From Candidatus Thorarchaeota archaeon (GTDB taxonomy: Archaea; Asgardarchaeota; Heimdallarchaeia; Hodarchaeales; Hodarchaeaceae): 32,000 nt of DNA. The notes under the pieces were generated by a model that ran no database searches, was not told the DNA's origin, and saw only the letters and a program-made list of their open reading frames with translations. A program made the translations under genes and the position numbers. Positions within the stretch are counted from its first letter, which is position 1, and each line of letters opens with the position of its first letter. The stretch spans positions 133,640 to 165,639 of the forward strand of contig JBHLRO010000006.1 of assembly GCA_048882505.1 (NCBI GenBank), in the 5' to 3' direction. Positions 11,869 to 28,060 of the stretch are shown in pieces.

Positions 11869-12414
11869 ATGAGGGTAATAGAAGGGCAACATGCCATTAA
11901 ATTTCAAGCACGGGATATATATAACAACCGGATTGCTCTAGACGACTTTTCTGCGCATCCCCTGTACCTTTGTTTCTTCAGATACGCATCATGCCCCTTT
12001 TGCAATCTCCGTTTCTCTGAATTAATTACAAAATACCCTAGACTTCATTCCGAATATAATCTACAGATATTGGCTTTTTTCCAATCTCCCAAAGAGCTTA
12101 TATCCAAGTACGTTGAAAAAAGACAAGGAAATATCCCTTTTCCGGTAATCCCAGATCCTAATCATGAAGTTTATAGGCTTTACGGGGTTTATGCATCCAA
12201 GTGGGGCTATATACGGGGCTACTTTCGTTGGGGGAAGTTTCTTAGGGCAATAAAAAGAGGGTTTCACCTTGGAATCATGGATGGAATTCGAACATTAATT
12301 CCTGCGAGCTTTCTGATCGATCAAGGGATTGTGGTAAAAGCCTACTACGGAAGCGATATTACCGACCATCTCCCCCTATCAGCCATACATGAATATTTTC
12401 TCGGTACATCATAA
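11869..12414 (+). CDS. AhpC/TSA peroxiredoxin-like (thioredoxin-fold) protein
   Basis: FFRYASCPFCNL (CxxC), PFPVIPDP-YRLYG, PASFLID. Confidence 0.85.
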   Translation: MRVIEGQHAIKFQARDIYNNRIALDDFSAHPLYLCFFRYASCPFCNLRFSELITKYPRLHSEYNLQILAFFQSPKELISKYVEKRQGNIPFPVIPDPNHEVYRLYGVYASKWGYIRGYFRWGKFLRAIKRGFHLGIMDGIRTLIPASFLIDQGIVVKAYYGSDITDHLPLSAIHEYFLGTS

Positions 12415-13312: not shown

Positions 13313-14182
13313 TTATTGTAGCTTTGCTGCATCTCTTGCCAATTGTGGACTTTTGTTTGGGTACAGGGTCTTTCCCCTATAGTATTTATCTAGAAGAATA
13401 AATATCAACCAAGCAACTCCTGTTGAAAATAAAACGTCTGAGGCATAATGTGCTCCTGCAACAACACGTCCAAGTGCAACGATCACTCCCCATGTTAAAA
13501 CGATGACCGTTACCAGGTAATAAATAGCTTTTTTCCTCTTCAAACGAGGCACATATAGTATTGGGAGTAGCATCCATCCCATGGCCGCGTGGCCCGAGGG
13601 AAACGAAGCATGCCCAGTCGATCCCCGTGGAAGAAACCAGGGGGTATAATCTGAATAATCTAAAGCTAGGTCTCGAAAGCGAACACGCCCCCACATGATT
13701 TTAATTACTTGTACAAATAGAAGCGGGTTCAAAACAGCCAAAATTAGAGTAAAAACAGCAAATGTTTGGAATTCATTCGATATGGTGAAATTTCCCCAGC
13801 GAATCACGACTAATGTTACTAAAACAAATGGAAAGACGATTAGAATGAGTTGGGAGTTAATTCCTCCAAATATCGCGTTGATCAAGGCGGATATCTGCCA
13901 AACAAGGCCCCCAATGACGACTGCGATTATTATAGAACTTTTTACTGTCCTAGTTTCTTTTACTGCAATGAAAACGGCGAAAATTGCTAATACAATGATA
14001 ATATTCCCTGGGATCTCTCCATACTCTGCGATGAACCTCGCCCACACTGCTTCGCTATCAACAAGGGCCATAGAAATTTCAAGATCCCAAACAGCAAAGA
14101 TGAGCGCCAGGAAACCAAAACAGGCACCAAGAAGATAGACTAAACGTTTTCCTATTGTACTATTCATCTTGGCTTTGGACAT
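13313..14182 (-). CDS. PAP2 family membrane phosphatase
   Basis: K-WGRVR (motif 1), SFPSGH (motif 2), GRVVAGAHYASDV (motif 3); about 6-7 TM. Confidence 0.9.
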   Translation of the reverse strand: MSKAKMNSTIGKRLVYLLGACFGFLALIFAVWDLEISMALVDSEAVWARFIAEYGEIPGNIIIVLAIFAVFIAVKETRTVKSSIIIAVVIGGLVWQISALINAIFGGINSQLILIVFPFVLVTLVVIRWGNFTISNEFQTFAVFTLILAVLNPLLFVQVIKIMWGRVRFRDLALDYSDYTPWFLPRGSTGHASFPSGHAAMGWMLLPILYVPRLKRKKAIYYLVTVIVLTWGVIVALGRVVAGAHYASDVLFSTGVAWLIFILLDKYYRGKTLYPNKSPQLARDAAKLQ

Positions 14183-14358: not shown

Positions 14359-15429
14359 GTGGTTATAACCCCACTAGATTTTCTTAGTGCTTTGGTCTTG
14401 GGAATTACAATTGGCTTGGTGTTACAAAGAGGACGTGTATGTTCTAATACTGCCTTCAGAAATTTATTATTAATCAGAAATCCCGAGGTTGCATTAGTTC
14501 TGGTTATTGCAGTTATGGTAGAGTTGATTGGTTACCAGCTATTGCAATTATTTTCACTGACCGAAATCTTTCCGGGATTTAGCATTTATTCAAATCCAAT
14601 AAGGTTCTCTTTGATTCTTATTCCTATAGGAAGTCTCTTGTTTGGATTTGGAACAGTTTTTGCGGGGGGATGTGCTGGGGGAGTGTGTTACAGGGTAGGG
14701 GAAGGATCAATTAAGTCACTCCTCGCTTTTCTTGGTTTTGGCATCGGGATTGCTGTTTTTGCCGTGGAACCCCTCCGCTCTGCATTTGCTGAAGTACAAA
14801 ATGCGACCCTTTGGACAATACAAGGTCAAACTCCTTCTCTTGAACAGATACTACCTCGGCCGATATGGACGATCGGAGCCCTAATTATGCTAGGAGTACT
14901 GGTTTACAAGTACAGGAGAACTCCTCCACAGTTACCGCATTTTCGTGAAGGATGGTCTCCTTTAATGTCCGGGCTTGTGCTTGGGGTTCTGGGTACACTA
15001 GCACGGTTTTTTTCCACGGTAGCTGGCCGTCCATTTGGGCTTTCAACGACGGACGGGATTGGGGAGCTTTTCTCAGTTGTTTCAAGCATTCTTGGAGTCA
15101 CCTCCTCTCTTTTGGGATGGGCAGGAATTATGATTCTCGGTCTTATTATCGGAGCAAGCTTGTCATCCCTTCAAATTAACGAGTTCAAAGTAAAAACTCC
15201 AAATAGGCGTGACATAATTCGGTTTTTTGGAGGAGGCCTTCTATTAGGGATTGGAGCTATGCTGGCATCGGGATGTAATTTCGGGCATATTCTGGGTGGA
15301 ATACCAGAACTTGGGATTTCCTCAGTTATAGCGTCAATATTCATGATGTTTGGTAATTGGATTTCATCATATTTGATGTATAATGTCCTTGGAGAAGAAA
15401 CTCCAGTTTCCACCCCATTATTACTTTAG
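14359..15429 (+). CDS. YeeE/YedE (TsuA-like) thiosulfate/sulfur-compound transporter
   Basis: QRGRVC, FGFG-FAGGCAGG, GAMLASGCNFGH: the three conserved YeeE cysteines; GTG start. Confidence 0.88.
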   Translation: MVITPLDFLSALVLGITIGLVLQRGRVCSNTAFRNLLLIRNPEVALVLVIAVMVELIGYQLLQLFSLTEIFPGFSIYSNPIRFSLILIPIGSLLFGFGTVFAGGCAGGVCYRVGEGSIKSLLAFLGFGIGIAVFAVEPLRSAFAEVQNATLWTIQGQTPSLEQILPRPIWTIGALIMLGVLVYKYRRTPPQLPHFREGWSPLMSGLVLGVLGTLARFFSTVAGRPFGLSTTDGIGELFSVVSSILGVTSSLLGWAGIMILGLIIGASLSSLQINEFKVKTPNRRDIIRFFGGGLLLGIGAMLASGCNFGHILGGIPELGISSVIASIFMMFGNWISSYLMYNVLGEETPVSTPLLL

Positions 15430-15592: not shown

Positions 15593-16321
15593 ATGTTAAA
15601 TGTGGAAATCCCTCCTGATATGATTGTACTTATTCCAGCAAAGAATGAAGAAACCGCCCTCGCATTCCTTCTTCCACGACTTTTGAAAAGGGTTAAACAA
15701 GTTCTCGTCGTGGATAATGGCTCTGAAGATCAAACCGCAAAGGTTGCCCGAGATGTAGGGGTCCAAGTAATAACGGAAAAGAGACCTGGGTACGGATCCG
15801 CGTGTTTGGCTGGTTTAAAATATCTTGCAAGACAACCAAACCCCCCTAAATATGTTTGTTTCTTTGATGGTGATGGACAAAGTAATGTGGCCGATATTGA
15901 TAAAGTAGCCCTTCCTGTTTTAAAGGACAGAACACCTTATTGTCAAGGGAGCCGTATGATAGATCCACAGTCTCGTAACAATCTTACCATCATAGCTCGC
16001 GTTGCAAATCGGCTGTTCGCGAAGTTTTTGTCAATGGTTTGGAAACAGCACCTAACCGATCTCGGCCCGCTTCGTGTTATAAGTTGGGATCTCCTTTCGG
16101 AACTAAATATGGCATCAATAAACTACGGTTGGACCATAGAAATGAGTACAAAGATATTAAAAATGGGGGGAGTTCCGTATCTGGAAGTTCCTGTTAATTG
16201 GCATCCACGTACTTCAGGTAAAAGTAAAATCTCTGGAAACTTTAATACCGCATTCAAAGCGGGGTCGATAATGATTTTGACGCTCCTTCGTGTACTTTTA
16301 TTTTGGAAACCTGGGATTTAA
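15593..16321 (+). CDS. GT2 glycosyltransferase, DPM1-like (polyprenol-phosphate-sugar synthase type)
   Basis: IPAKNEE, VVDNGSEDQT, RPGYGSAC, FFDGDGQ, TDLGPLR, YGWTIEM, R-SGKSKISG. Confidence 0.9.
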   Translation: MLNVEIPPDMIVLIPAKNEETALAFLLPRLLKRVKQVLVVDNGSEDQTAKVARDVGVQVITEKRPGYGSACLAGLKYLARQPNPPKYVCFFDGDGQSNVADIDKVALPVLKDRTPYCQGSRMIDPQSRNNLTIIARVANRLFAKFLSMVWKQHLTDLGPLRVISWDLLSELNMASINYGWTIEMSTKILKMGGVPYLEVPVNWHPRTSGKSKISGNFNTAFKAGSIMILTLLRVLLFWKPGI

Positions 16322-16322
16322 A

Positions 16323-17114
16323 ATGTCAATTAGGCAGGGAATCGTACTGTTTACGAAAGTACCGACCCAGGTACCAGTGAAAACGCGTTTGGCGCATTCC
16401 CAATTTCCGAAAAACTTCCAAGTTGATTTAACAACCGCGATGATAAAAGATACCCTCCTGATTTTAGATGAAGTGATGAAACACACCCTATTCACACCAA
16501 TTATCAATTATTTCCCTGAAACCAATTCTGCGCGAAATATGATAAAAAAGATCATAACAGCGATTATGGAGCATGAAAACCCAAGCTTGATGGAGAAGGT
16601 GAATCTGGTACCACAAATAGGGGATACGGTAGGTCAACGATTTTCTATCGCCATTGATAGCGCTTTTAAGGATTTAAAAATGAAATCAACGATTATTGTT
16701 GGTTCTGATACTCCCCACCTATCTCCTGCCTATATATTAAAGGGAATGGAATTCTTGATGTCGAATCCAAAAGGGCTTGTGTTGGGTCCATCTCAAAATG
16801 GAGGTTTCTACCTATTCGGAACAAACCATCCATGCCCTAGGGAAATCAGCGAGATATTTCAGAAGAACTCTATACACAATGAGTTGGGGAACCTATTAGA
16901 GTTGTTCCCCGACCATAAAGCGTGTATATTGCCGACGGTTTTTGATATTGATACGTTTTCTGATTTAAGAAACGTTTTCTCTGAGGTTTATGCGCGATCC
17001 TTTAATAATCCTAGAGAGCCAGCAAAAATGACAGCGGCGCACATGTGGTCTTTGCTTAAAACTTTGGATAAATCGATTTGGGAATCTTCGCAGGACTCCA
17101 GAACAATGAGTTAG
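16323..17114 (+). CDS. DUF2064 / TIGR04282-like (CofC-like) glycosyl/nucleotidyltransferase
   Basis: LFTKVP-VKTRLA, Q-G-VGQRF, IIVGSDTPHL, VLGPSQNGGFYL, FDIDTFSDL. The real start is probably ATG 16323, right after the upstream TAA, not 16290. Confidence 0.85.
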   Translation: MSIRQGIVLFTKVPTQVPVKTRLAHSQFPKNFQVDLTTAMIKDTLLILDEVMKHTLFTPIINYFPETNSARNMIKKIITAIMEHENPSLMEKVNLVPQIGDTVGQRFSIAIDSAFKDLKMKSTIIVGSDTPHLSPAYILKGMEFLMSNPKGLVLGPSQNGGFYLFGTNHPCPREISEIFQKNSIHNELGNLLELFPDHKACILPTVFDIDTFSDLRNVFSEVYARSFNNPREPAKMTAAHMWSLLKTLDKSIWESSQDSRTMS

Positions 17115-17124
17115 AGGAAAAACA

Positions 17125-18543
17125 ATGGAATTTACAATCGCCTTTGGAATTTGGACGTTAGGAGCTGTTATTTTCCTCATCTGTACCTTGTATTATGCTC
17201 TTGAATTAATCCCTGCGTACATTAGAAACCGTAAACAATATCAAAATCCTATTATTCTAACGGATCAGCAAATCGGTGAATTATTAAAAAAAACGGAACA
17301 AGAACTACCTATCTTCAAATTTCAAATTACAACTCGCGGTAATGAAGTTGAAGTGGTCACAAGAGGGATCGATTCCATTTATCAGATAGCACAGAATCCT
17401 TTATTCAGAAAAAACATTGAACTGCTAATAGTAACTGATTTCCAGGATGAGGTTGTTCTCTTTAACCAGTATTTGCAAAATCAGGGCATTGACATTTCTG
17501 TTGAAGTTATCGCAGTTCCTCCTGACTATCAAACTCCTAAGGATTCCCTATATAAGGCCCGAAGTCTACATTATTCCTCAGAATTCCGAGCGGCAGACCC
17601 AGGTGAAAAGCGCGCATTTGTTTTTTATTTTGATGCAGAATCCACCATATCGGAAGATGATTTCCGCCGTATTATACACTCGATACTTGTATCGCCGGAG
17701 AAGAAGATTTTTGAAGGCCCTATAGTCTATTCGCACAAATATTTTGATGCAAATCTTATAAGTCGTCAGATGGAGGCATCACGACCCTTTAATTGCTATC
17801 ACTGCGCACAAGTAATGACTAATCCTCCTCCTCTTCACCTTCATGGATCGAATTTACTTGTGGATGCGGAACTAGTATCATCGATCGGGTGGGATTCAGG
17901 AAGGCTTCCTAACGATGATCCCTTACTAGCAGAAGACTTGTATTTCGGTATGAGAGCATACAGTAGATTTGGTCGGGAGGTATTCGGATGGCATGGAGGA
18001 CTAGTGACTGAACAACCGCCATTTAGTGTCCGAGAGTCCTTTAATGCTCGTATGCGATGGATTACGGGTGCTTGGCAGGCTTTGACTCTCATAAGGAAAA
18101 ATGAAGAATTTCTCAGATTAAATTGGTTTGCACGGATTCGGTTCTTGTCTCGGTTGCGCTTCAGAATTATTGCACATGGGATAAGTTTTTTTGCTGCCTT
18201 GTTTATTATTCTCACGCTTTTGTTTGTATTAGTGCCGTCAGCTTTTCCCTTTTTAGCGATGGATGCATCTTTTATATCACCGATGCTTCGTACATTTCAG
18301 GTGACTGTTTCACGGCTAATCTTACTACCTGGAACCTTATTTTGGCTTTTCGGCATCATCAATGGATCTTCGAAAAATATTAGGTCCCTCGGGCTTACTA
18401 AAAGACAAAAAACATGGGAATATATCAAACTACTTCTTGTAACACCAATTGGAGGAGCGGTTGAGTCTTTTGCTGCCCTGTATGCCACTCTTAGGTACTG
18501 GATTGGACATCCATACCGATCCTGGGATGTAACACGTAAGTAG
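17125..18543 (+). CDS. membrane GT2 glycosyltransferase (Glyco_trans_2_3 / egghead-BRE-3-like)
   Basis: N-terminal TM, YKARSLHY, FDAE, AEDLYFG, EQPPFS-ARMRW, 2-3 C-terminal TM. Confidence 0.75.
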   Translation: MEFTIAFGIWTLGAVIFLICTLYYALELIPAYIRNRKQYQNPIILTDQQIGELLKKTEQELPIFKFQITTRGNEVEVVTRGIDSIYQIAQNPLFRKNIELLIVTDFQDEVVLFNQYLQNQGIDISVEVIAVPPDYQTPKDSLYKARSLHYSSEFRAADPGEKRAFVFYFDAESTISEDDFRRIIHSILVSPEKKIFEGPIVYSHKYFDANLISRQMEASRPFNCYHCAQVMTNPPPLHLHGSNLLVDAELVSSIGWDSGRLPNDDPLLAEDLYFGMRAYSRFGREVFGWHGGLVTEQPPFSVRESFNARMRWITGAWQALTLIRKNEEFLRLNWFARIRFLSRLRFRIIAHGISFFAALFIILTLLFVLVPSAFPFLAMDASFISPMLRTFQVTVSRLILLPGTLFWLFGIINGSSKNIRSLGLTKRQKTWEYIKLLLVTPIGGAVESFAALYATLRYWIGHPYRSWDVTRK

Positions 18544-18552
18544 GTAAATCCA

Positions 18553-19908
18553 TTGAAAACCTCAAGGCCACAATGGCGTCAAGACAGTATTTCATACGTT
18601 GGACTTGCGCTGATGGGGATCATCCTTGTTTTAGCGCTTGAAATATTGATATTGACAACCTTCCTAAAGCGCTCATCCTGGAATTTCATAATTGGATTTT
18701 TCATTCCCTTCAGTGTTTATTGCGTGATAGCTGTAGTAATCCGTCGGTATCAGAATTTGTTGGTCAAGAAAAGGTACTTCACTGTAATCCTCATGATTGT
18801 GGCATCAATAATCCAGATTCGTCTCCTATTTACTAATGCTACGCTATCTGACGATATCTATCGTTTTTTTATGGAGGGTATGGCCCTCGTAAACGGAATC
18901 AATCCCTATTCTACCCCACCCTCGGATTTTCCATCCAGTTTACAGCCTCCATTTCAATTTCTAGTGAATAATCCGGATGTTACCTCCCCGTATCCCCCGC
19001 TTACACTTTTGGTATTTGCCGTTCTCTACATGGCCTCTCTAGTTGCATCTCCAGTAATCTTTCGAGTTTTCTTTTCATTTATGTACTTAGCTACTATCCC
19101 ACTCATGGCGCACCTTCTTTCAATCTTTGATAAACCTTCTTGGCGAATCATTCTGTACGCGTGGAATCCGCTTTTGCATCTAGAGACCGGAAATGGGTCT
19201 CATTTCGACCCTCTGGTAGTGTTCGTAGTGATGTGTGCGATTTATGCTCTAAATCGTGAGAACCACTCTCTGGGAGGAACGGCCCTACTCATGGCGACAC
19301 TGCTCAAATATTATCCAATTTTCCTGATTGGCGTATATTGGCGTCAATTAGGGAGAAATGGAAGAGTAATCGTGCTTTTAGGCCTTTTTGTTTACAGCTT
19401 GTCAATTTTATTGACTCCCTCCATCATTTCTGGTCTGCTCATTTATGCTGATAGATGGTACTTCAATGCGAGCGTTATGTGGGCCTTGGTAGAATCAACT
19501 GGAACCTTTTTTGGCGCCAAAGTTGTAGTTGGAGCCATTTTCTTGGGCATTTATCTTATAATAATCTTAAAATCAGAACATAGCCCTCACATCTTAAATC
19601 CAGTGAGCGGGCTTTTTGTGTTGGCTTCATTTCTTCTCTTGCAACCTGTGTTTCATCCTTGGTATCTGTTCTGGATATTTCCCTTCGTGTTGTTAGTTGA
19701 ACCGTTAGACTATTCCTGGATCCTCCTAACCGGAACAATTATTCTATCATACCACGTATATATCAATTTTGATGCCATTGGTGTTTGGTACGAATCGGAC
19801 ATTGTTCGGATAATCGAATTTCTCCCCTTTTATGCTGGTATACTCTATATTTACCGCGAGAAACTGAAAAACATTTATCGAACCCTGTCAAAGCCACAAG
19901 GTGCTTAA
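18553..19908 (+). CDS. GT-C fold membrane glycosyltransferase (GT87/DUF2029-like)
   Basis: LSDDIYRF-EG-GINPY, YPP, YAWNPL-E-GNGSHFD, LKYYP, HPWY; about 10 TM; TTG start. Confidence 0.8.
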   Translation: MKTSRPQWRQDSISYVGLALMGIILVLALEILILTTFLKRSSWNFIIGFFIPFSVYCVIAVVIRRYQNLLVKKRYFTVILMIVASIIQIRLLFTNATLSDDIYRFFMEGMALVNGINPYSTPPSDFPSSLQPPFQFLVNNPDVTSPYPPLTLLVFAVLYMASLVASPVIFRVFFSFMYLATIPLMAHLLSIFDKPSWRIILYAWNPLLHLETGNGSHFDPLVVFVVMCAIYALNRENHSLGGTALLMATLLKYYPIFLIGVYWRQLGRNGRVIVLLGLFVYSLSILLTPSIISGLLIYADRWYFNASVMWALVESTGTFFGAKVVVGAIFLGIYLIIILKSEHSPHILNPVSGLFVLASFLLLQPVFHPWYLFWIFPFVLLVEPLDYSWILLTGTIILSYHVYINFDAIGVWYESDIVRIIEFLPFYAGILYIYREKLKNIYRTLSKPQGA

Positions 19909-19960
19909 ACAGAATAACTACGCAAACTCTAGACGTTTTAGAAAGCGTTTTCAGCTGCCG

Positions 19961-20464
19961 CTAGACCAAGAACTTCACGAGACCAGTAGGGAGTTTGTCT
20001 TTAAGCCAATAATCAATGCCGTACCACCGACCAGCTCCTGTCAAGGCACAGATCGCAAAACCCACGATCATTAAAAGGTAGGTCCAAACCCAATCTACTC
20101 CTAAGGTAGTAAAAAGCAAAACTGTCGACACACCGGCACCTACCAGAGCTCCTGGACGTGTAAACACCCCGAAAAGAACTGTAACAGAAATAAAAAGCTC
20201 CAGAAGCATCCAGCCAGGGGCCATAAGAGCGGCATTAGGAAAAACAAAATCCCTCACAATTGTATCAAGGGGAGTAACAACATGTAAAGGATCATCCAAG
20301 AAGAAACTAATGGTCCCAACGTAACCTGTGGCCGTAAATACTCCCTTCATGATGTTACTTACCCATGTCGTCAGAAAAGCAGCCCCTAGTGACAATCGGA
20401 TAAGTGCGACATACGTACCTGATACTCGTTGAGCGTTTATCTCTCGAATTGCTTGCATGGCCAT
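19961..20464 (-). CDS. DoxX/DoxD-like membrane protein
   Basis: LIRLSLGAAFL, ELFISVTVLFGVFTRPGALVG, GAGRWYGID; ATG 20464 preceded by AGGTGA. Confidence 0.75.
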   Translation of the reverse strand: MAMQAIREINAQRVSGTYVALIRLSLGAAFLTTWVSNIMKGVFTATGYVGTISFFLDDPLHVVTPLDTIVRDFVFPNAALMAPGWMLLELFISVTVLFGVFTRPGALVGAGVSTVLLFTTLGVDWVWTYLLMIVGFAICALTGAGRWYGIDYWLKDKLPTGLVKFLV

Positions 20465-20505
20465 CAATATTCACCTTTGACTTTTAATTGATTTCTTAAT
20501 TAATC

Positions 20506-20979
20506 CTACATTAACACCTTTACCCATTTTGGCAAATCCTTGGCATTAAGCTGCTCGTCAATCCCCCTAAACATTCCGGGATGGCTAAAAAGCAGGAGGA
20601 CCAATGACATAACCGCTGCAGTCCATGGAACGATCAAATCAAGAATTCCAAGACCAACTCCAGCCAATCCGATGGCAAATCCGTTGAATGTAGCTAGTGC
20701 AGCACCAGCTCGCGCCAAGGTACCTGTAAGGAGACTTAGGGATGAGATAATCTCTATACTGAGTACAATACCGAATATCAGAACCCAATTGGAAACAGCC
20801 CAGTCCATTAAGGCAGGCGGAAGAAGGGGTTCACCTGCCGCCATATCAGTGATTCGATCAAGGAAATTTGGGAATAATACTCTTCGAATAGCAGTTCCAA
20901 ACCAGATTAATCCGGTAATTAACCTTAGAGGAAATATGATGGAGTAATTCTCTGCCAAGGCAGTTTTAATAATGGGCAT
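20506..20979 (-). CDS. DoxX/DoxD-like membrane protein (tandem paralog)
   Basis: PLRLITGLIWF, EIISSLSLLTGTLARAGA, PGMFRGID; same architecture as its neighbour. Confidence 0.7.
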   Translation of the reverse strand: MPIIKTALAENYSIIFPLRLITGLIWFGTAIRRVLFPNFLDRITDMAAGEPLLPPALMDWAVSNWVLIFGIVLSIEIISSLSLLTGTLARAGAALATFNGFAIGLAGVGLGILDLIVPWTAAVMSLVLLLFSHPGMFRGIDEQLNAKDLPKWVKVLM

Positions 20980-21102
20980 ATGCAGATCCGTCTTTTAGCA
21001 ATTTAAAAAAGGTTGCGATGAATATTGATAACCAAACAAACGCCGATCTGGAAAGAATAATCCTCCTGTAATATGCGGAAACGATGTTAAATCGGCGTGT
21101 AT

Positions 21103-21135
21103 AAGAAAAAAAGAAGGGAAAAGGGAAATAAGGGG
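21103..21135 (-). terminator. pyrimidine/U-rich putative terminator after the NSS gene
   Basis: A run of C/T tracts on the minus strand (TTTCCCTTTTCCCTTCTTTTTTT) just after the stop at 21136. Confidence 0.45.
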
Positions 21136-22683
21136 CTATATCGCAGATGTTTCTACCCTACGAGTTCTTCTTTGGTCATATAAGACCAAAAGAAAGATAA
21201 AAATTGTTAATACCAAAGCAAGCCAGGGAGCTACAGATGAAATCAGGGTATAAAATACGTAAGCATCTCCAGGAATAGCATTCAGACCGAACGTGCCAAC
21301 AATTATGTCAGAGAAGGCATATAAGATGACAAAAATGAGGAAAAACGGTTGGACAAATTTTACCCAAAAATGCCATTTATTCCCTAATTTGAATCGGGAA
21401 GCTGTGTTGACTTCTTTTAGCGCCATCTTTTTAGGTACAAACCAACCAAACGCTATTATTGCGATAATACTACCAATTACTGAACCAGTAGCACCGACAA
21501 AAAGATCTAAATTATACAAGAAGCCACCGTCTAACGGAGATAACATTGAGGGTATAGCAAGTACCATGGTTAGGAATCCAATGACCAGATAAGCTTGTTT
21601 TCTGGATATTCCAACATTATCAACCAGATAGACGATTGTTACTTCAAATATTGCAGTCAGAGGTAGATAGGCAGCGAAGAAGAACATCAAAAAGAATATC
21701 GACATACCGATTCCTGACACTCCAATTCCCAGAGATTTGAAAACCTCCGGTATGACTCCAAAGAATAGTCCAGGTCCGAAAGTCTCTGCGTTATTCATCC
21801 CAATACCTGCCAGTGAAATAACCCCGAAAACCAATAGGACAGAAATTAAGCTGGCCACAGTATTTCCGACGAGGGTTAAGCCTGCGTTGACAGGAATATC
21901 ATGGGCGGACTTTCTTTTCATATAACTGGCATACAAAACCATGTAGGATCCACCAAGACATAAAGAGAAAAATGCTTGTCCTAATGCAGCTACGAAGGTA
22001 TAAGATGTAACTTGCTCTGTGATGTTAATGGTTGTAAGGTATCCAATAACATTAGAGAATACTCCAGGTTGAAGAAAAACGAGAATGGTCAGAAAACTAA
22101 CACTGCCATAGAAAATTGGAACCACGAATTTACTGATCTGCTCAATCCTTCGGGTTCCGTGAAGCAACGGAACTGCAATTGCGAGAATGACGATAGCAGT
22201 GAAAATGAATTGTGACACGGGATCAGCCGCAACCGTGGTTTCAAAATATTCAGTACTCTGTGTTGTTAACGCAGTTAGCCGGCTATCAAACATGGCAGAG
22301 AATGCATAACGAAGAATCCAACCGATCCAAACGACGAAATAACTTCCAACTGCTAATACTATCAAAAATAGAAGAATAGAAACGACTTTTCCGCCTGGAA
22401 ATCTCACTTGATTATAGGCCCCATCAGGACCTCTTCCAGTTAATCGACCTAAACCCCATTCCGCGGTTAGAGCAGGGTATACGAAAAGCGCAGCTAGGAT
22501 AAAATAGATCCCCAGATAAGCAGCGCCCCCAAACGAAGCTACTTGATAGGGAAATCGCCAAAGAGTGCTGAAACAAACGGTCATGCCCAGCATGACAGAT
22601 ATTAGGCCGGTACGACTTTTGGTACTGAAACAATCATGGCATATTACATCCGAGGATTCGGAATTTAAGGAAGGAGAAGACAT
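21136..22683 (-). CDS. NSS/SLC6 (LeuT-like) transporter with atypical substrate and ion sites
   Basis: WRFPY-FGGAAYL-Y, AEWGLGR, GTRRIE-SK, ALGQAFFSL-LG, YASY, GPGLFF-PEVF; about 12 TM. Confidence 0.88.
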   Translation of the reverse strand: MSSPSLNSESSDVICHDCFSTKSRTGLISVMLGMTVCFSTLWRFPYQVASFGGAAYLGIYFILAALFVYPALTAEWGLGRLTGRGPDGAYNQVRFPGGKVVSILLFLIVLAVGSYFVVWIGWILRYAFSAMFDSRLTALTTQSTEYFETTVAADPVSQFIFTAIVILAIAVPLLHGTRRIEQISKFVVPIFYGSVSFLTILVFLQPGVFSNVIGYLTTINITEQVTSYTFVAALGQAFFSLCLGGSYMVLYASYMKRKSAHDIPVNAGLTLVGNTVASLISVLLVFGVISLAGIGMNNAETFGPGLFFGVIPEVFKSLGIGVSGIGMSIFFLMFFFAAYLPLTAIFEVTIVYLVDNVGISRKQAYLVIGFLTMVLAIPSMLSPLDGGFLYNLDLFVGATGSVIGSIIAIIAFGWFVPKKMALKEVNTASRFKLGNKWHFWVKFVQPFFLIFVILYAFSDIIVGTFGLNAIPGDAYVFYTLISSVAPWLALVLTIFIFLLVLYDQRRTRRVETSAI

Positions 22684-22770
22684 TAAATCACGTTATCCTT
22701 TTTTTAGGCTCCACTACCCCTTTTTTTCAATTAAAAGCATTGCGGTGCTTTTATCGTAGATAAGACCGAT

Positions 22771-23682
22771 TTAAGAATTAGTACAGTTCATGCCTTCCAT
22801 TCTGCAAGTCCAACATGCCATATATCTCATTGGAAAAGCGGTTGCCGCTTCATCAAGAGTATCTCCCATACGAGCCCCTTCTTCGTTTACTAAGATTGGG
22901 CACACCCAAACTCCCTTTTCCGTTACCATACGGCATGTACTACATTGTAAGTTCGAATAATCGTAATCTACAAAGCATTCCTTTGTGAATAGTTCATGCT
23001 GTGAATAGGGTCTGCTCCGGTCCGCTTCTCTACCTATCCGTAACGGTGGTAGAATCTTTAAACGCTGTTTTGCAGGAGGGATCCCACTTTTTTCCAACAT
23101 TGTCTGGAAATCTGCTTTAACCTGCTCTAATTCCTCACTGGACCAGCTTCTCATTGCAGTTATGATGGGATTAAACCCAACTTCAACTAAGTTCTTGAGA
23201 CCACCGTTTGCCTTTATATAGGAGTTTTTACCTCTGATCAAATCGTTCGAGCGTTCGTCAGGACCATCAAATGAGACTCTAAACGTAAGAGTGAACTTTC
23301 CAGCGTCTTGAATTTTCCGTAATTGGGCGGCCCTTCTTTTTGCTATTCGGGTTGCATTTGTCAAAACGGTTGTATCAGCATGTAATAGGGATTCAGCGAG
23401 CATAGAATCGATTTCAGGGTTAATAAATGGTTCTCCTCCAGTGAAATAGATTTCCAGACGGGAGTAATTGCGAGATAGCGTGTTGTTCAATGCTCGTTTG
23501 AAAGTAGCATATCTAAGATAGGGATATCGATTTGCGGTGGGGCTTGATTCAACATAGCAGTGATGGCAGCTCAAATTACATCTACTACCCGTGAAGAACC
23601 ATAAAACGAATGAATCGAGAGTATCAGCAAGGAATGGAACCGAATAAACATTTTTTTGGGAAGTTGGATTGAGCTCGAGCAA
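22771..23682 (-). CDS. radical SAM protein (family often near DUF2064/GT clusters; ArsS-related, not clearly ArsS)
   Basis: LWFFTGSRCNLSCHHCYVESSP (CxxxCxxC), FTGGEPF, VLTNAT, RVSFDG; Cys-rich C-terminus CSTCRMV-CPIL-CWTC-C; TTG start. Confidence 0.88.
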   Translation of the reverse strand: MLELNPTSQKNVYSVPFLADTLDSFVLWFFTGSRCNLSCHHCYVESSPTANRYPYLRYATFKRALNNTLSRNYSRLEIYFTGGEPFINPEIDSMLAESLLHADTTVLTNATRIAKRRAAQLRKIQDAGKFTLTFRVSFDGPDERSNDLIRGKNSYIKANGGLKNLVEVGFNPIITAMRSWSSEELEQVKADFQTMLEKSGIPPAKQRLKILPPLRIGREADRSRPYSQHELFTKECFVDYDYSNLQCSTCRMVTEKGVWVCPILVNEEGARMGDTLDEAATAFPMRYMACWTCRMEGMNCTNS

Positions 23683-24252: not shown

Positions 24253-24825
24253 TTACTTTTTCCTTCTCTGGACTAGGGCCAGGCTAGCAATGATTAAAAG
24301 ACCAATCGCTAGTTCGAACCCAGGCGCTGGAGTACCAGGAGGATTCCCAGTCGGGTTACCCACTTTGAAATAACCCCACATCCCTGCATCGAAATGTCCT
24401 GAAAAGGAGCAGTAAAACATGATATAGGTGTCCTTATCGGGAGTTGTAAAGGTCGTGTTCCAAACACTTGTTTCTGTTCCCCCTGAGTTGCCTGTATTGG
24501 CTTCAGCGGGAAGAGGTCCTAGTACCAGATCCCCAGACTTTGGTGTGTCTGATGCAGTTGCTGAGGTTACTATCCGTTCGTCTGCCGCCACTATCAAATT
24601 ATGCCATACACCTGATTCATTGTTCCAGAATACTATTGTGTATTGTGTGTTCTTCTGTACGTCTATGGCCTTCTTATCATACAGAGTACCAGTAAGGGCC
24701 GTAATTGTGATTGTCGTCCCTTGAGTGGGTGTATTTGTTGTAGCCGAGAGATTTAGGGGAACGATTATAGATAAGAACATTATCCCCGTAAATAAGGCTA
24801 GTAAGATAACTCCTTGTTTTTTCAT
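24253..24825 (-). CDS. secreted type-1 blue copper protein (cupredoxin) with PGF-CTERM-like anchor
   Basis: Signal peptide; VWHNL (His ligand); FYCSFSGHFDAGMWG (C-x4-H-x4-M); tail PAPGFELAIGLLIIASLALVQRRKK. Confidence 0.85.
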   Translation of the reverse strand: MKKQGVILLALFTGIMFLSIIVPLNLSATTNTPTQGTTITITALTGTLYDKKAIDVQKNTQYTIVFWNNESGVWHNLIVAADERIVTSATASDTPKSGDLVLGPLPAEANTGNSGGTETSVWNTTFTTPDKDTYIMFYCSFSGHFDAGMWGYFKVGNPTGNPPGTPAPGFELAIGLLIIASLALVQRRKK

Positions 24826-25143: not shown

Positions 25144-27393
25144 TTAAACCTGGCTCGATAATGCATAGAGTCCCAAGAACGTGAAAAGAACAATCCAGGT
25201 CACTACTGGGACCAATATCTTGAGACGATCTTTTTTATCGTGCTCCAAGTTCAATATTAGGGTTCGATGCGTGGCGAAAATCGAAGCAGCCATTCCACCA
25301 AGAACTGCGATCAACCGGATAGCAAAGCCCGCCTCGGCTGGTATTAGGGATCCTAGTTCCAAGTTATGGAAACCTATCAAATATAATGGATTTAGTAGGT
25401 AAGCTATCGCGACCGGGAAGACAATAGGATTGTCAAGAGCCAGCGTGCTTCCATTATAGATTGCATTATTCATGAAGTATCCGCCAAATGGATCTGCTAG
25501 GATACCAAGAATTGCGGGAGTATGTTCGAAGATCCTTACCACCCAAAATGCAAAGTGGAGTGAGAGTCCGACTGGAATCACAGAATAGCTAAATAGGTTG
25601 AATAGATCTTGGACATTTTTCTTTTTCTCGTTCTTCACATATTTTCTAGTGAACAATAAAACTAGAAAGAATAGGCCTATAGGCAAGAGAAATGCCGCTG
25701 TCAAGAACCAGGCGAATGTTGTGATAACCTGTGCAATGAATGCATCACCAAATACCCCGGTAAGCCCAGCGATTGACGAGTCTAAGGTGGTACGAACAAA
25801 AGGTATACTTGGCATGATTACCGCTAAGGTTAAGCCGACAAGCACCGCCGCCAGACCAGATTGATCAAATCGTCGTTTTTTCGGATTGTACGTGTCTACG
25901 AATGGTGCACGAATATTTAACGTAATGTTGTCATACGGACAGCTCTTAAAACATTCGGTACACATAATACACCCAAGGTTTCGATCCATGATCATTGGAA
26001 ACTGTTCCATTGGACATGCGTATCCGCTATCCCATGTTGGAACTGTCAATTTTCCCTTTCGATCCAGAACTTCAGTCTCTGTACGTCCACGAAGGCAGTA
26101 TTTCCCCGTACACAGCTTACATACATCTAAATCCTTGTTACGGACTTCAATGGTTCCTGCCATTCCGTAGGTTCCGATCAATCCTCCCAGCGGGCAGACG
26201 TACATACAGAACGCCCGACGTTCGTAGAATAGTCCTAGGATAATTGATAGCCCTATAAGAATGACTATGAAGAGAGCCGTGAAGAGTGGATTGACAAACA
26301 TACCAACAATAAAATCAAACATCATGATGCCTGCAAAGAGGCCTGTTGTGATCCACATGGAGGTCAGTCTCTTGGGATATTTACGTTTTGGATCCGTATC
26401 TCCCTTCAATGGTTTTCCAATAACCATAGCTTGCGTAAACTCTGGAATAGCGTAACCGAAGTACGCTCCAACGTAGAGCCCGAAGAGAATTGCCAAGAGC
26501 CAAAAGATTCCAACTATGGTATCGATTATCCCTGTACCCGCGACTATTGTTGTAAAAACGCGTGATAACAAGACCACGGGGACAAATGCTAAGAAGATAA
26601 GATAATCAAGGATTCCTTGAACCAAATCCGTACTGATGGCTCCAGTTCCCATTAATTCCTCGGCAGAAAGTCCTCCAAACAATCCAATGGTAATGCCCAC
26701 AATCAATGCACTGCCAACTCCTAGGAAGAAAGCCATTACAAAACGAATGATTCGGCCCGAGGTTGAAACAGATTCTGGCAGGTGGGTTCTATGGGCCCAT
26801 TCGCCAATACAACCGAGTGGACATACCGTACACCACACACGGCCAAGAAACATGAACGTTATAATCATGCCTGGCCACCAGATGTTCCAGGTCAGAAATG
26901 TGGCACCATTAATTAACGCCGAGTCTTTTGCATAAATGTAACCGCCATATCCGTATATACCGAAGATCATTACCAGGACAAAGAATACGGCATTAGGAAA
27001 CTCTAACACCCATTGAAACCAACGACGTTTGATTAGCCAGCTTCCAAACCGATTATCGGTCAATGAAAACTTCCAGTATCCACCAAATCGACGTTTTTCC
27101 AAGGATTCCTTATCATCAGGGGAGCGGTACAGGAGAAACAAGGTCAAACCCGCAAAAAGAGCGGGTAGGACGAGCGTTGGAAGGAGCGTATTGGCTATTA
27201 GGCCACCAAGATCTCTGCCAAGCAATCCAATGAGATCGAATCCAAAGAATGAAATAGTGTCTTTTAACATGTACAGACTCAGATACGATACCCATACTAA
27301 TGCAATGACGAAGATTAGGAGCGAGAAATTCTTTGAGTTTTGCCCTCTTAGTTGAGCAAAGGTAGCGTCTTCTGACGTTACTTCTTTTTGCAT
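25144..27393 (-). CDS. integral membrane polyferredoxin (4Fe-4S binding; NapH/MauN/NosR/CcoG-like)
   Basis: RVWCTVCPLG and RAFCMYVCPLGG (CxxxCP), CKLCTGKYC, ACPMEQFP, CIMCTECFKSCP; many TM helices. Confidence 0.88.
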   Translation of the reverse strand: MQKEVTSEDATFAQLRGQNSKNFSLLIFVIALVWVSYLSLYMLKDTISFFGFDLIGLLGRDLGGLIANTLLPTLVLPALFAGLTLFLLYRSPDDKESLEKRRFGGYWKFSLTDNRFGSWLIKRRWFQWVLEFPNAVFFVLVMIFGIYGYGGYIYAKDSALINGATFLTWNIWWPGMIITFMFLGRVWCTVCPLGCIGEWAHRTHLPESVSTSGRIIRFVMAFFLGVGSALIVGITIGLFGGLSAEELMGTGAISTDLVQGILDYLIFLAFVPVVLLSRVFTTIVAGTGIIDTIVGIFWLLAILFGLYVGAYFGYAIPEFTQAMVIGKPLKGDTDPKRKYPKRLTSMWITTGLFAGIMMFDFIVGMFVNPLFTALFIVILIGLSIILGLFYERRAFCMYVCPLGGLIGTYGMAGTIEVRNKDLDVCKLCTGKYCLRGRTETEVLDRKGKLTVPTWDSGYACPMEQFPMIMDRNLGCIMCTECFKSCPYDNITLNIRAPFVDTYNPKKRRFDQSGLAAVLVGLTLAVIMPSIPFVRTTLDSSIAGLTGVFGDAFIAQVITTFAWFLTAAFLLPIGLFFLVLLFTRKYVKNEKKKNVQDLFNLFSYSVIPVGLSLHFAFWVVRIFEHTPAILGILADPFGGYFMNNAIYNGSTLALDNPIVFPVAIAYLLNPLYLIGFHNLELGSLIPAEAGFAIRLIAVLGGMAASIFATHRTLILNLEHDKKDRLKILVPVVTWIVLFTFLGLYALSSQV

Positions 27394-27409
27394 AAATTTT
27401 CCACCTTTA

Positions 27410-28060
27410 TTATGCTGTTGTTACTGTTACAAATCCGTTCATCTGCCCATGCCCAAGTCCACAGTAGAAGTTGCAAGAGAAGAGATGGTTGCCGATTTGA
27501 TCAACCGTGGGTTTTGCGTAGAATGATATCTCTTTTAGCTGTGGTAGATTCAGTACGACAGGATTACCAAAGTAATCTTGGAAGGTTGGGACGATTTCAA
27601 AACCGTGATCTGTATCAAGTGCCTTGATTATAATTTGGTATACGGTGCCGACCTTGAGGTCGATGTTGTAATATGCTGCCGTCTCTGGATAACCCACCCC
27701 TTCAGGAATTGTTTCGTACTTGGATACGTTTATCGGAATGGATTCCTCGGTCGTGGCATTTTCAATGCGTGTGACGTTAAAGGTCCACGGTTTGAGCTGT
27801 GCTTCAACGTGTATGACGTAATCTATTGGCTCGTCTGGTACTTCTGTTCCTAGGTTACTTAATAGGAGATTCGGGGTAATTCCCATAGCCCCACCTAGTA
27901 ATATTCCGCTTAGCAAAGCGGCTGGCACTAAAACGACTATAATCTCCTTCGGTTTCCAGGAATTTCGAATCGCTGCTACTAGGACACCAATGATTAAGAG
28001 GCTAGATAGTATCAGGAGCAAAATGTTATGATCTAGCGGTATCCAGCTGGTTTCTGACAT
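27410..28060 (-). CDS. membrane-anchored CuA cupredoxin (cytochrome c oxidase subunit II-like domain), stand-alone
   Basis: Two N-terminal TM helices, AQLKPWTF, DTDHGF, SCNFYCGLGHGQM (complete H/C/C/H/M CuA ligand set). Confidence 0.85.
   Translation of the reverse strand: MSETSWIPLDHNILLLILSSLLIIGVLVAAIRNSWKPKEIIVVLVPAALLSGILLGGAMGITPNLLLSNLGTEVPDEPIDYVIHVEAQLKPWTFNVTRIENATTEESIPINVSKYETIPEGVGYPETAAYYNIDLKVGTVYQIIIKALDTDHGFEIVPTFQDYFGNPVVLNLPQLKEISFYAKPTVDQIGNHLFSCNFYCGLGHGQMNGFVTVTTA

Follow-up and report, generated by a model that had tools for sequence, protein, structure and literature searches.

A Hodarchaeales gene cluster combining glycosyltransferases, a DUF2064 protein and a radical SAM enzyme is a candidate pathway for a lipid-linked surface sugar

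The window analyzed here is a 32,000-nucleotide (nt) stretch of contig C6 from a 4.3-Mb metagenome-assembled genome (94.5% complete; termed G000) of the Hodarchaeales, members of the Heimdallarchaeia, which are the closest archaeal relatives of eukaryotes. Within it, four plus-strand genes encode a short family 2 glycosyltransferase (GT2), a DUF2064 protein, a membrane GT2 and a 451-amino-acid (aa) candidate GT-C glycosyltransferase, and minus-strand genes for an enzyme of the radical S-adenosylmethionine (SAM) type (rSAM), a transporter of the NSS family, a 157-aa membrane protein and a DoxX protein converge on this block. Gene content and homology make it fairly probable, in our judgment, that this DNA represents, in its Hodarchaeales form, a widespread cassette by which an unusual, lipid-linked sugar is moved onto a glycan or glycolipid at the outer face of the membrane. 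The sugar is probably adenosine-derived, with an unusual pentose as the best reading. Judged by homology, the closest studied relative of the system is the mycobacterial methylthioxylose (MTX) pathway, with the ArsS/TIGR04282/TIGR04283 arsenosugar cassette as a parallel one; on this reading, the window cluster is a new archaeal variant of the cassette type that these two represent.

All eight open reading frames (ORFs) of the cluster were recovered at the positions that a preliminary description of this DNA had assigned to them. The tightly packed operon reported there is real: gaps of 1 nt, 10 nt and 9 nt separate GT2 from DUF2064, DUF2064 from the membrane GT2, and the membrane GT2 from the gene for the 451-aa protein, with the DUF2064 ATG at 16323, 1 nt past the GT2 stop. 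The arrangement is more than a chance one, being kept and reshuffled as a set across lineages. Genes for YeeE (a neighbor upstream of the block), GT2, DUF2064, membrane GT2, GT-C and DoxX were syntenic in 12 Hodarchaeales species and, at 35–60% identity, in at least 10 genomes of the same genus. A first synteny pass detected the rSAM and NSS genes only in the ~90%-identical relative G016, and the view of them as unrelated neighbors was dropped after examination of loci L064, L115, L116 and L292–L294. On every examined contig that carries an ortholog of this rSAM with enough flanking sequence, the gene (55–65% identity) adjoined the block, and five gene orders were seen (window and G016; L115 and L293; L292 and L294; L064 and L165; L116). 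In L064, from another family of the same class, a 59%-identical rSAM shares one operon with GT-C and GT2; DUF2064 and the membrane GT2 are transcribed divergently from this operon, and a DoxX-YeeE pair is nearby. Methyltransferase, rSAM and DoxX genes are convergent on the block in L115 and L293, L116 has the order GT2, GT-C, rSAM, deaminase, and L292 (Kariarchaeaceae) has rSAM, DoxX and YeeE followed by the block. The order in L294 (Heimdall LC_3) is PNP, deaminase-rSAM-DoxX-YeeE, GT-C and GT2, then DUF2064, membrane GT2 and an SNF gene. Since there are five different gene orders, we argue for selection on linkage.

The rSAM ortholog occurred in 5 of 400 Asgard genomes, all five DUF2064-positive as against 80 of 400 overall, and it was always found beside the GT block or in a block-bearing genome, in these five as on six further contigs. 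NSS orthologs were present in 4 of the 400, all of them rSAM-bearing, and in G085 the two genes share a contig. The preliminary description had proposed that these genes act together and had named co-occurrence of rSAM and NSS with the GT operon in related genomes as the test. Joint action was borne out, in that the rSAM ortholog always accompanies the block and NSS is confined to four of those five genomes; on the test itself, most same-genus relatives lack both genes, but wherever the rSAM ortholog occurs the block occurs also. The interpretation in that description is partly supported: rSAM, NSS and GT genes form one system, but arsenic or selenium chemistry finds no support (see below). 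We propose that rSAM, NSS and DoxX constitute the second, convergent transcription unit of this system.

Other rSAM modules are paired with DUF2064 elsewhere among Asgard archaea. All 10 same-genus, DUF2064-positive genomes that lack the window-type rSAM have an ortholog of a 354-aa SPASM rSAM (67–93% identity). G000 and G016 have no ortholog of this enzyme, and DUF2064-negative genomes have none either, with a ~40%-identical paralog at most. In several genomes the SPASM gene lies a few kb beyond DoxX beside a methyltransferase gene, and the two products are 49% and 51% identical to a pair encoded directly upstream of DUF2064-GT2 in another Asgard family. A third Asgard set consists of canonical ArsS, TIGR04282 and TIGR04283 (in L167, 384.6 bits for ArsS and 193 bits for TIGR04282). 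Because three rSAM types occur in Asgard loci, DUF2064 plus GT2 looks like a constant module with interchangeable rSAM enzymes. The DNA beyond DoxX in most Hodarchaeales also has a content of its own, comprising a UbiE-like methyltransferase, a 354–377-aa SPASM rSAM, a second methyltransferase and a UbiA prenyltransferase (for example L024:12853-16370, L115:6404-9899 and G009:C1:1628642-1629700); this SPASM/UbiA module adjoins cytochrome bd or COX genes and is absent from the window's genome.

The association extends to bacteria. Of 80 metagenome loci anchored on the rSAM family, one was archaeal (56% identity) and 79, at 36–43% identity, were taken as bacterial. When these were searched with profiles derived from the Heimdall proteins, DUF2064 was found in 13 of the 79 and in none of 68 control loci (1.1 Mb; Fisher p = 2e-4), and among the 30 bacterial loci of at least 8 kb it was found in 10. 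The link between DUF2064 and rSAM enzymes noted in the preliminary description is a general one, seen in Asgard archaea and bacteria alike. Locus L212 illustrates it in a single row of genes, encoding in order a Pyr_redox/Fer4 protein, a GT2::DUF2064 fusion, DUF547, DUF2064, a porin, an SSF-like transporter, rSAM, Metallophos_2, a DPM1-like GT2 and a GT-C. Two DUF2064 copies stand in one operon, and the DPM1-like GT2 and GT-C score 239 and 178 bits, respectively, on the Heimdall profiles. In the bacterial metagenome loci L182–L260, genes for AhpC/TSA peroxiredoxins turn up repeatedly just downstream of the rSAM-metallophosphoesterase pair; an AhpC gene also lies at 11869-12414 of the window, and in L024.

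The short GT2 is a candidate dolichyl-phosphate-sugar synthase by its family relationships. It scores 82 bits with AglJ and 58 bits with PpgS, both far under the family cut-offs, and 31.7 bits with TIGR04283 (cut-off 182) over the N-terminal 60 residues only. The DUF2064 protein, with a CofC-like GT-A fold (PDB 3cgx, E 0.007), is a candidate sugar-1-phosphate nucleotidyltransferase; it scores 77.4 bits with TIGR04282 (cut-off 134) and 25 bits with CofC. DUF2064 was found in 23 of 61 sampled Mycobacteriaceae genomes, and Mycobacteriaceae locus L288 has the order PNP (5'-methylthioadenosine (MTA) phosphorylase), NAD epimerase, GT2, DUF2064, membrane ORF. Window and L288 GT2 proteins are 33% identical over 221 aa (E 2e-27), and the L288 GT2, searched against the window's genome, has the window GT2 as its top match. 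The DUF2064 proteins of the two loci are 24% identical (E 1e-6). We infer that the L288 GT2 is MtxS (Rv0539). In published accounts of the pathway, MTA is the starting compound, MtxS makes decaprenyl-phospho-MTX, and the GT-C MtxT (Rv0541c) caps lipoarabinomannan (PMC8780516, PMC12088412, PMC11127046). Kelly et al. 2024 regard it as unclear whether an MTX-type route, in which an adenosine metabolite gives rise to a lipid-linked pentose, exists outside lipoarabinomannan assembly (PMC11127046). A literature search found no paper on DUF2064 or on the function of TIGR04282 or Rv1681. The M. tuberculosis MTX locus, as Angala and colleagues reportedly set out in 2017, also comprises Rv0535 (MTA phosphorylase), Rv0536 (GalE3) and Rv0540. 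The product of the mycobacterial pathway is a lipoglycan-borne 5-deoxy-5-methylthio-xylofuranose.

Genes for the early part of such a route occur in sister lineages of the window's genome. An MTA/5'-deoxyadenosine-deaminase-like gene lies beside rSAM in L064, L116 and L294. Two of these loci, L064 and L294, have an MTA-phosphorylase-like gene there as well, and L165 has unannotated ORFs at the positions matching deaminase and phosphorylase genes. The cluster phosphorylase of G080 is an extra copy, because a second one is located elsewhere in that genome. An NAD-dependent epimerase was not seen in any Heimdall locus examined.

The 451-aa protein is, on its predicted structure, a GT-C of the MptA_B/GT87-like kind. 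It has no match in our local Pfam copy, GT87 model included; its homologs carry PF09594 hits. An AlphaFold2 model (pLDDT 89, pTM 0.90) matched glycosylphosphatidylinositol (GPI) mannosyltransferase I (9wno; TM-scores 0.57/0.63), PimE (9dm5; 0.54/0.62) and ALG3 in Foldseek, where 9wno, 9dm5, 9s6r and 6snh all reached probability 1.00 at TM-scores of 0.50–0.63. Sequence identity to the fold matches is 15–18%, and a search with the family profile picked up PimE 9dm5 weakly (E 0.015). Residues S99, D101 and R104 of an LSDDIYR motif in the first outer loop are invariant. The assignment in the preliminary description is therefore upheld by a PF26314 hit, the AlphaFold2 model and the Foldseek matches, and the protein is a candidate transferase that uses a lipid-linked sugar at the outer face. 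Its accompanying logic also holds, whereby a DPM1-like GT2 and a GT-C make and use a lipid-phosphate sugar, given the identity to the mycobacterial GT2 and the GT-C fold.

The membrane GT2 has a cellulose/chitin-synthase-like architecture with an RxRW motif and conserved residues in its family alignment, and it lies directly downstream of DUF2064 in every Heimdall locus examined. It may build an acceptor glycan or glycolipid. Structural neighbors in the Atlas are chitin-synthase-like and MdoH-like proteins, and a search of PDB sequences with the membrane GT2 profile gave no match. Close full-length relatives come from Actinomycetota, Chloroflexota and Thermoplasmata, and look-alike clusters in the Atlas indicate Nitrososphaerota. 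The preliminary label "egghead-like" denotes no more than the shared PF13632 domain: one distant homolog bears the JGI label "egghead", and the nearest relatives are all prokaryotic. No cassette surrounds the actinomycetotal and chloroflexotal homologs, and nothing beyond a B12-rSAM, DUF6687 and a GtrA-type GT2 turned up in the Thermoplasmata loci; because of such homologs outside the Heimdallarchaeia, the family as a whole is not diagnostic. Two further observations concern this gene. An extra 1–3 kb of DNA lies between DUF2064 and the membrane GT2 in three Hodarchaeales genomes (L038:6724-10001, L039:3302-4391 and L037:8885-10001), where other genomes have a few tens of bases at most, and could be an insertion or an additional gene. 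On the contig of P0097 (GCA_024449895.1), an end-cut gene is followed by genes for TusA, a 587-aa rhodanese, a 40%-identical membrane GT2, an 839-aa Pyr_redox/Fer4 protein, a 732-aa GT-C::GT2 fusion and, farther along the contig, DsrE, a sulfur-relay context of these transferases in a more distant lineage.

The rSAM has Pfam domains PF04055 and PF13353 only. By sequence, its nearest named family is Rv1681, of which it is not a member: it scores 102.5 bits with NF049973 (cut-off 380) and is 28% identical over 274 aa to mycobacterial near-members. Such near-members were present in 2 of 61 Mycobacteriaceae genomes, both DUF2064-positive with the genes not adjacent (too few to count), and in none of five other actinobacterial genomes. 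Nor is it an ArsS: the match to TIGR04167 reaches 48.8 bits (cut-off 300) and covers model positions 9–149 of 303, the N-terminal core; a search of the window's genome with the ArsS model returned the window rSAM as its best match (48.5 bits). A Pfam scan of the protein gave no DUF3641 (PF12345) hit, a domain that is present in 100% of members of the Atlas ArsS cluster, itself ranked 40 among the rSAM look-alikes. The CX3CX2C motif is invariant, as are C247, C261, C290, C293 and C300, and the C-terminus is a Cys-rich, twitch-like auxiliary-cluster region. The structures nearest to the predicted model (pLDDT 92) are the twitch/SPASM enzymes BlsE, SkfB, anSME and EpeE. The top neighbor, BlsE, is a nucleoside-sugar enzyme; the fold search gives generic neighbors and fixes no reaction.

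DoxX is a constant member of the cassette and a candidate for a flippase-like role or for a partner of rSAM. It lies directly downstream of rSAM in L115, L292, L293 and L294, adjoins it in L181, and is also present in L064, L116 and L165; its orthologs match DoxD. Of the "DoxX pair" in the preliminary description, the gene at 19961-20467 is DoxX, but for that at 20506-20979 Pfam returned nothing and BLAST showed no similarity to DoxX, and we therefore count one DoxX and a separate small membrane protein. Orthologs of the latter (52–58% identity) hold the same position in some Hodarchaeales loci. YeeE, whose association had also been suggested, is a conserved neighbor of the block: it adjoins it in the Hodarchaeales loci and in L064, L164, L292, L293, L294 and L115, and was not near it in L116. 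Its score with TsuA (NF052577) is 199 bits (cut-off 400). The NSS protein scores 49.2 bits with NCBIfam Na_transp (cut-off 50) and is 59% identical (E 1e-169) to the SNF gene product of LC_3, encoded directly downstream of the membrane GT2. Its unusual, cysteine-bearing motif in transmembrane segment 1, GMTVCFSTLWRFPYQ, has identical letters in this ortholog. The LC_3 gene (L294:16385-18414) was called in two parts, one of 424 aa and one of 262 aa, as would result from a frameshift or a split. PAP2, which the preliminary description had tentatively included, lies beside the block only in the nearest, ~90%-identical relative G016 and is probably outside the cassette. Scans of the window gave no hit to a GtrA-like protein (PF04138) or a MATE flippase.

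Features of the cluster and its flanks in the window
Feature	Position	Strand	Profile match	Remarks
PAP2 phosphatase	13313..14182	-	PF01569, 64.4 bits	
YeeE/TsuA-family sulfur-compound transporter	14359..15429	+	PF04143, 206.9 bits	Upstream of GT block
Short DPM1/MtxS-like GT2	15593..16321	+	PF00535, 57.6 bits	
DUF2064 protein	16323..17114	+	PF09837, 55.3 bits (cut-off 25.8)	
Membrane GT2	17125..18543	+	PF13632, 54.3 bits	
451-aa membrane protein (predicted GT-C)	18553..19908	+	PF26314 (MptA_B_family)	Precomputed hit
DoxX/DoxD-family small membrane protein	19961..20467	-	PF07681, 24.7 bits (cut-off 23.6)	
157-aa hydrophobic membrane protein	20506..20979	-		No Pfam hit
Divergent NSS (SNF-family) transporter	21136..22683	-	PF00209, 84 bits (cut-off 27)	
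303-aa radical SAM (rSAM)	22771..23682	-	PF04055, 56.9 bits	CNLSCHHC motif

The DNA beyond rSAM has features of its own. A cupredoxin/sulfocyanin-like protein (24253-24825, minus strand) ends in a Heimdall-CTERM sorting tail (NF045529, 25.3 bits, cut-off 24), which places the window in the Heimdallarchaeia and marks a surface-anchored copper protein. Homologs bear Heimdallarchaeota or Hodarchaeales labels. Further on (25144-28060, minus strand) lie genes for a membrane polyferredoxin of 749 aa (Fer4_5) and for a 216-aa protein with no Pfam hit. The polyferredoxin (25144-27393) was considered as a cassette member and rejected, having only Fer4_5-type motifs in common with the Pyr_redox/Fer4 protein of the bacterial cassette. 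In LC_3, ThiS and ThiF genes in tandem, together with a ThiF-rhodanese fusion (L294:1-2141), a sulfur-carrier system, lie ~4.5 kb from the cluster, separated from it by fibrillarin/Nop genes and an aldehyde dehydrogenase gene.

A pathway can be proposed for the lipid-linked sugar. A 5'-substituted 5'-deoxyadenosine would be converted to a 5-substituted 5-deoxyribose-1-phosphate, the starting nucleoside being MTA or 5'-deoxyadenosine from SAM metabolism, or the product of rSAM. The enzyme would be the housekeeping MTA phosphorylase in the window's genome, and the dedicated deaminase with the second MTA-phosphorylase copy in the sister lineages. DUF2064, as a CofC-like enzyme, is predicted to make the nucleotide sugar, and rSAM may make an adenosyl precursor, as ArsS does, or tailor or epimerize the sugar, the role of mycobacterial GalE3. 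The short, MtxS-like GT2 would then form a dolichyl-phosphate-sugar. After flipping of the lipid-linked sugar, for which DoxX is a candidate, the PimE/PIG-M-like GT-C would move the sugar to an acceptor, perhaps one built by the membrane GT2. YeeE and the NSS transporter may supply or remove a small substrate.

Several points weigh against this proposal. The commonest partner of bacterial rSAM, encoded directly downstream in 45 of 79 loci, is a metallophosphoesterase that the model leaves unexplained. Profile scans of the window proteins revealed no MTA phosphorylase, deaminase or NAD epimerase, and the window's genome has a single, distant MTA-phosphorylase copy, located elsewhere. The GT2 is like AglJ and PpgS, too, at a similar low level, and its homology does not settle its sugar specificity. 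The membrane GT2, YeeE, DoxX and NSS lack counterparts in the MTX pathway, and comparison of the Heimdall GT-C profile with the 531-aa membrane ORF at the MtxT position gave an hhalign probability of 0.2. Because the two are not homologous, the final GT-C step is analogous, not orthologous, to that of MTX. Finally, co-occurrence counts overstate support because related genomes are not independent samples.

An ordinary dolichyl-phosphate-hexose pathway would have the GT2 make dolichyl-phosphate-mannose or -glucose and the GT-C serve as a simple mannosyl- or glucosyltransferase in the making of a glycolipid, lipoglycan or S-layer glycan, with rSAM, NSS, DoxX and YeeE as unrelated neighbors. The best named hits of the GT2 (AglJ, PpgS, dolichyl-phosphate hexose transferase) and the nearest folds of the GT-C, dolichyl-phosphate-mannose-dependent mannosyltransferases, agree with this reading, as does the finding that 10 of 12 same-genus, block-bearing genomes lack the window-type rSAM and NSS. 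Nonetheless, DUF2064, for which a plain hexose route has no role, is always in the operon, and some rSAM, of the window or SPASM type, is always present. Moreover, rSAM, DoxX and YeeE have remained together with the block across five rearrangements and in a second family of the class, and the rSAM-DUF2064 association recurs in bacteria; we consider the hexose pathway distinctly unlikely. An arsenosugar-type or selenium pathway, in which rSAM adenosylates a methylated arsenic or selenium species and DUF2064 and the GTs form a glycoconjugate or lipid from it, is very improbable. The DUF2064-GT2-rSAM triad does have the architecture of the ArsS cassette, canonical in other Asgard archaea (L167), relatives of YeeE include the selenium-linked YedE (102 bits), and the methyltransferase of the alternative module has weak ArsM-like hits. 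The search for arsM in the rest of the genome, advised in the preliminary description, was in part successful: an arsenite-methyltransferase match above cut-off exists (G000:C32:21216-22070; NF008823, 295 bits, cut-off 263), with two near-matches on C10 and C13, but it is on another contig and unlinked to the cluster. The metalloid reading that the description put forward was not supported, as rSAM matches ArsS under its cut-off over the N-terminal core only and has no PF12345 hit, as nothing in the genome scores above it with the ArsS model, and as DUF2064 and GT2 fall under the TIGR04282 and TIGR04283 cut-offs. Its selenium reading fared no better, with no SelD above cut-off (54 bits versus 125) in this 94.5%-complete genome.

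A sulfur-sugar variant of the cassette is unlikely, in our estimate, and differs in the chemistry assigned to rSAM. Here rSAM forms or uses a C-S bond, and a lipid-linked thio-, methylthio- or sulfo-pentose arises de novo and not from waste MTA, either by adenosylation of a sulfur species imported through YeeE or by sulfur or methylthio insertion with the methyltransferase of sister loci. The co-directional rSAM, DoxX and YeeE unit in L292 and L294, the 5-nt spacing of DoxX and YeeE in L064, and the methyltransferase gene preceding rSAM in L115 and L293 fit such chemistry. So do the TsuA-like character of YeeE, a relative of thiosulfate transporters, the relationship of DoxX to the thiosulfate:quinone oxidoreductase subunit DoxD, the distant contig that combines TusA, rhodanese and DsrE with a membrane GT2 and a GT-C::GT2 fusion, and the fact that MTX, the known relative, is itself a methylthio sugar. 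This evidence is one of context, however, and any sulfur role of DoxX is putative here. L116 has no YeeE near its cluster, no sulfur genes accompany the relatives of the membrane GT2 in Thermoplasmata, and the bacterial versions instead have genes for a porin, an SSF-like transporter and a phosphoesterase. It is doubtful, then, that rSAM is an ArsS-independent adenosylating or sulfur-inserting enzyme that, with sulfur delivered through YeeE and DoxX and with NSS as its dedicated transporter, yields a new thio-, methylthio- or sulfo-pentose at the surface. If it were, DUF2064, the MtxS-like GT2 and the GT-C would display a new sugar on a surface glycolipid or glycan of Heimdallarchaeia, and DUF2064 plus GT2 would be a general module for 5-substituted 5-deoxyriboses into which ArsS, SPASM and Rv1681-like rSAM enzymes plug.

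Together with its bacterial relatives, the cluster suggests a wide distribution for the core of short GT2, DUF2064 and GT-C, one that extends to the Asgard archaea and involves regular coupling to at least three rSAM subfamilies. The reading that we prefer, a cassette for an unusual and probably adenosine-derived lipid-linked sugar, further suggests that DUF2064 is a nucleotidyltransferase for 5-substituted pentose-1-phosphates, and the cassette offers candidates for the later steps of arsenosugar synthesis. The cluster points to a putative surface sugar in the Hodarchaeales, a lineage that figures centrally in thinking about how eukaryotic membranes and glycosylation arose, and would tie a divergent NSS transporter to a defined pathway.

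The cluster shares with the MTX pathway a short GT2 adjoining DUF2064, a lipid-phosphate-sugar donor predicted to serve a GT-C outside the membrane and, in sister Heimdall loci, MTA-phosphorylase-like genes. It differs in its GT-C, which is of the MptA_B/GT87-like family and not alignable with the mycobacterial one, in having rSAM in place of the NAD epimerase, and in its additional membrane GT2, DoxX, YeeE and NSS; the carrier would be dolichol where mycobacteria use decaprenol. The ArsS/TIGR04282/TIGR04283 cassette (arsenosugar biosynthesis; formerly rSAM/selenodomain-associated transferases) has the same triad of rSAM, DUF2064 and GT2, a phosphoesterase partner in common with the bacterial versions, and a canonical form in other Asgard families. 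In contrast, all three window proteins fall far under the respective cut-offs, the rSAM has no hit to DUF3641 and is nearer to Rv1681, and a GT-C and a membrane GT2 are added.

The GtrA/GtrB/Gtr* systems and the polyprenyl-phosphoribose/MATE/GT136 route (Kelly et al. 2024, PMC11127046) follow the same sequence of cytoplasmic synthase, flip and GT-C action on a finished glycan. The window has no recognizable GtrA or MATE flippase, however, so that DoxX or YeeE would have to serve; its sugar is probably not derived from phosphoribosyl pyrophosphate, and DUF2064 and rSAM have no counterpart there. PimE (GT87), MptA/MptB and PIG-M/Gpi14, users of polyprenyl-phosphate-mannose, share with the window GT-C its predicted fold and the place of the conserved acidic motif, which lies in the first outer loop, but are of low identity; the window protein is missed by the local Pfam GT87 model. 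The bacterial pair of Rv1681-like rSAM and metallophosphoesterase has an rSAM related at the identities given above, DUF2064, GT2 and GT-C in one operon (L212), and a LeuT-fold-type transporter beside rSAM. The archaeal loci lack its metallophosphoesterase, porin, DUF547 and Pyr_redox/Fer4 protein, and have in addition the membrane GT2, DoxX, YeeE and, in some cases, genes for a deaminase and an MTA phosphorylase.

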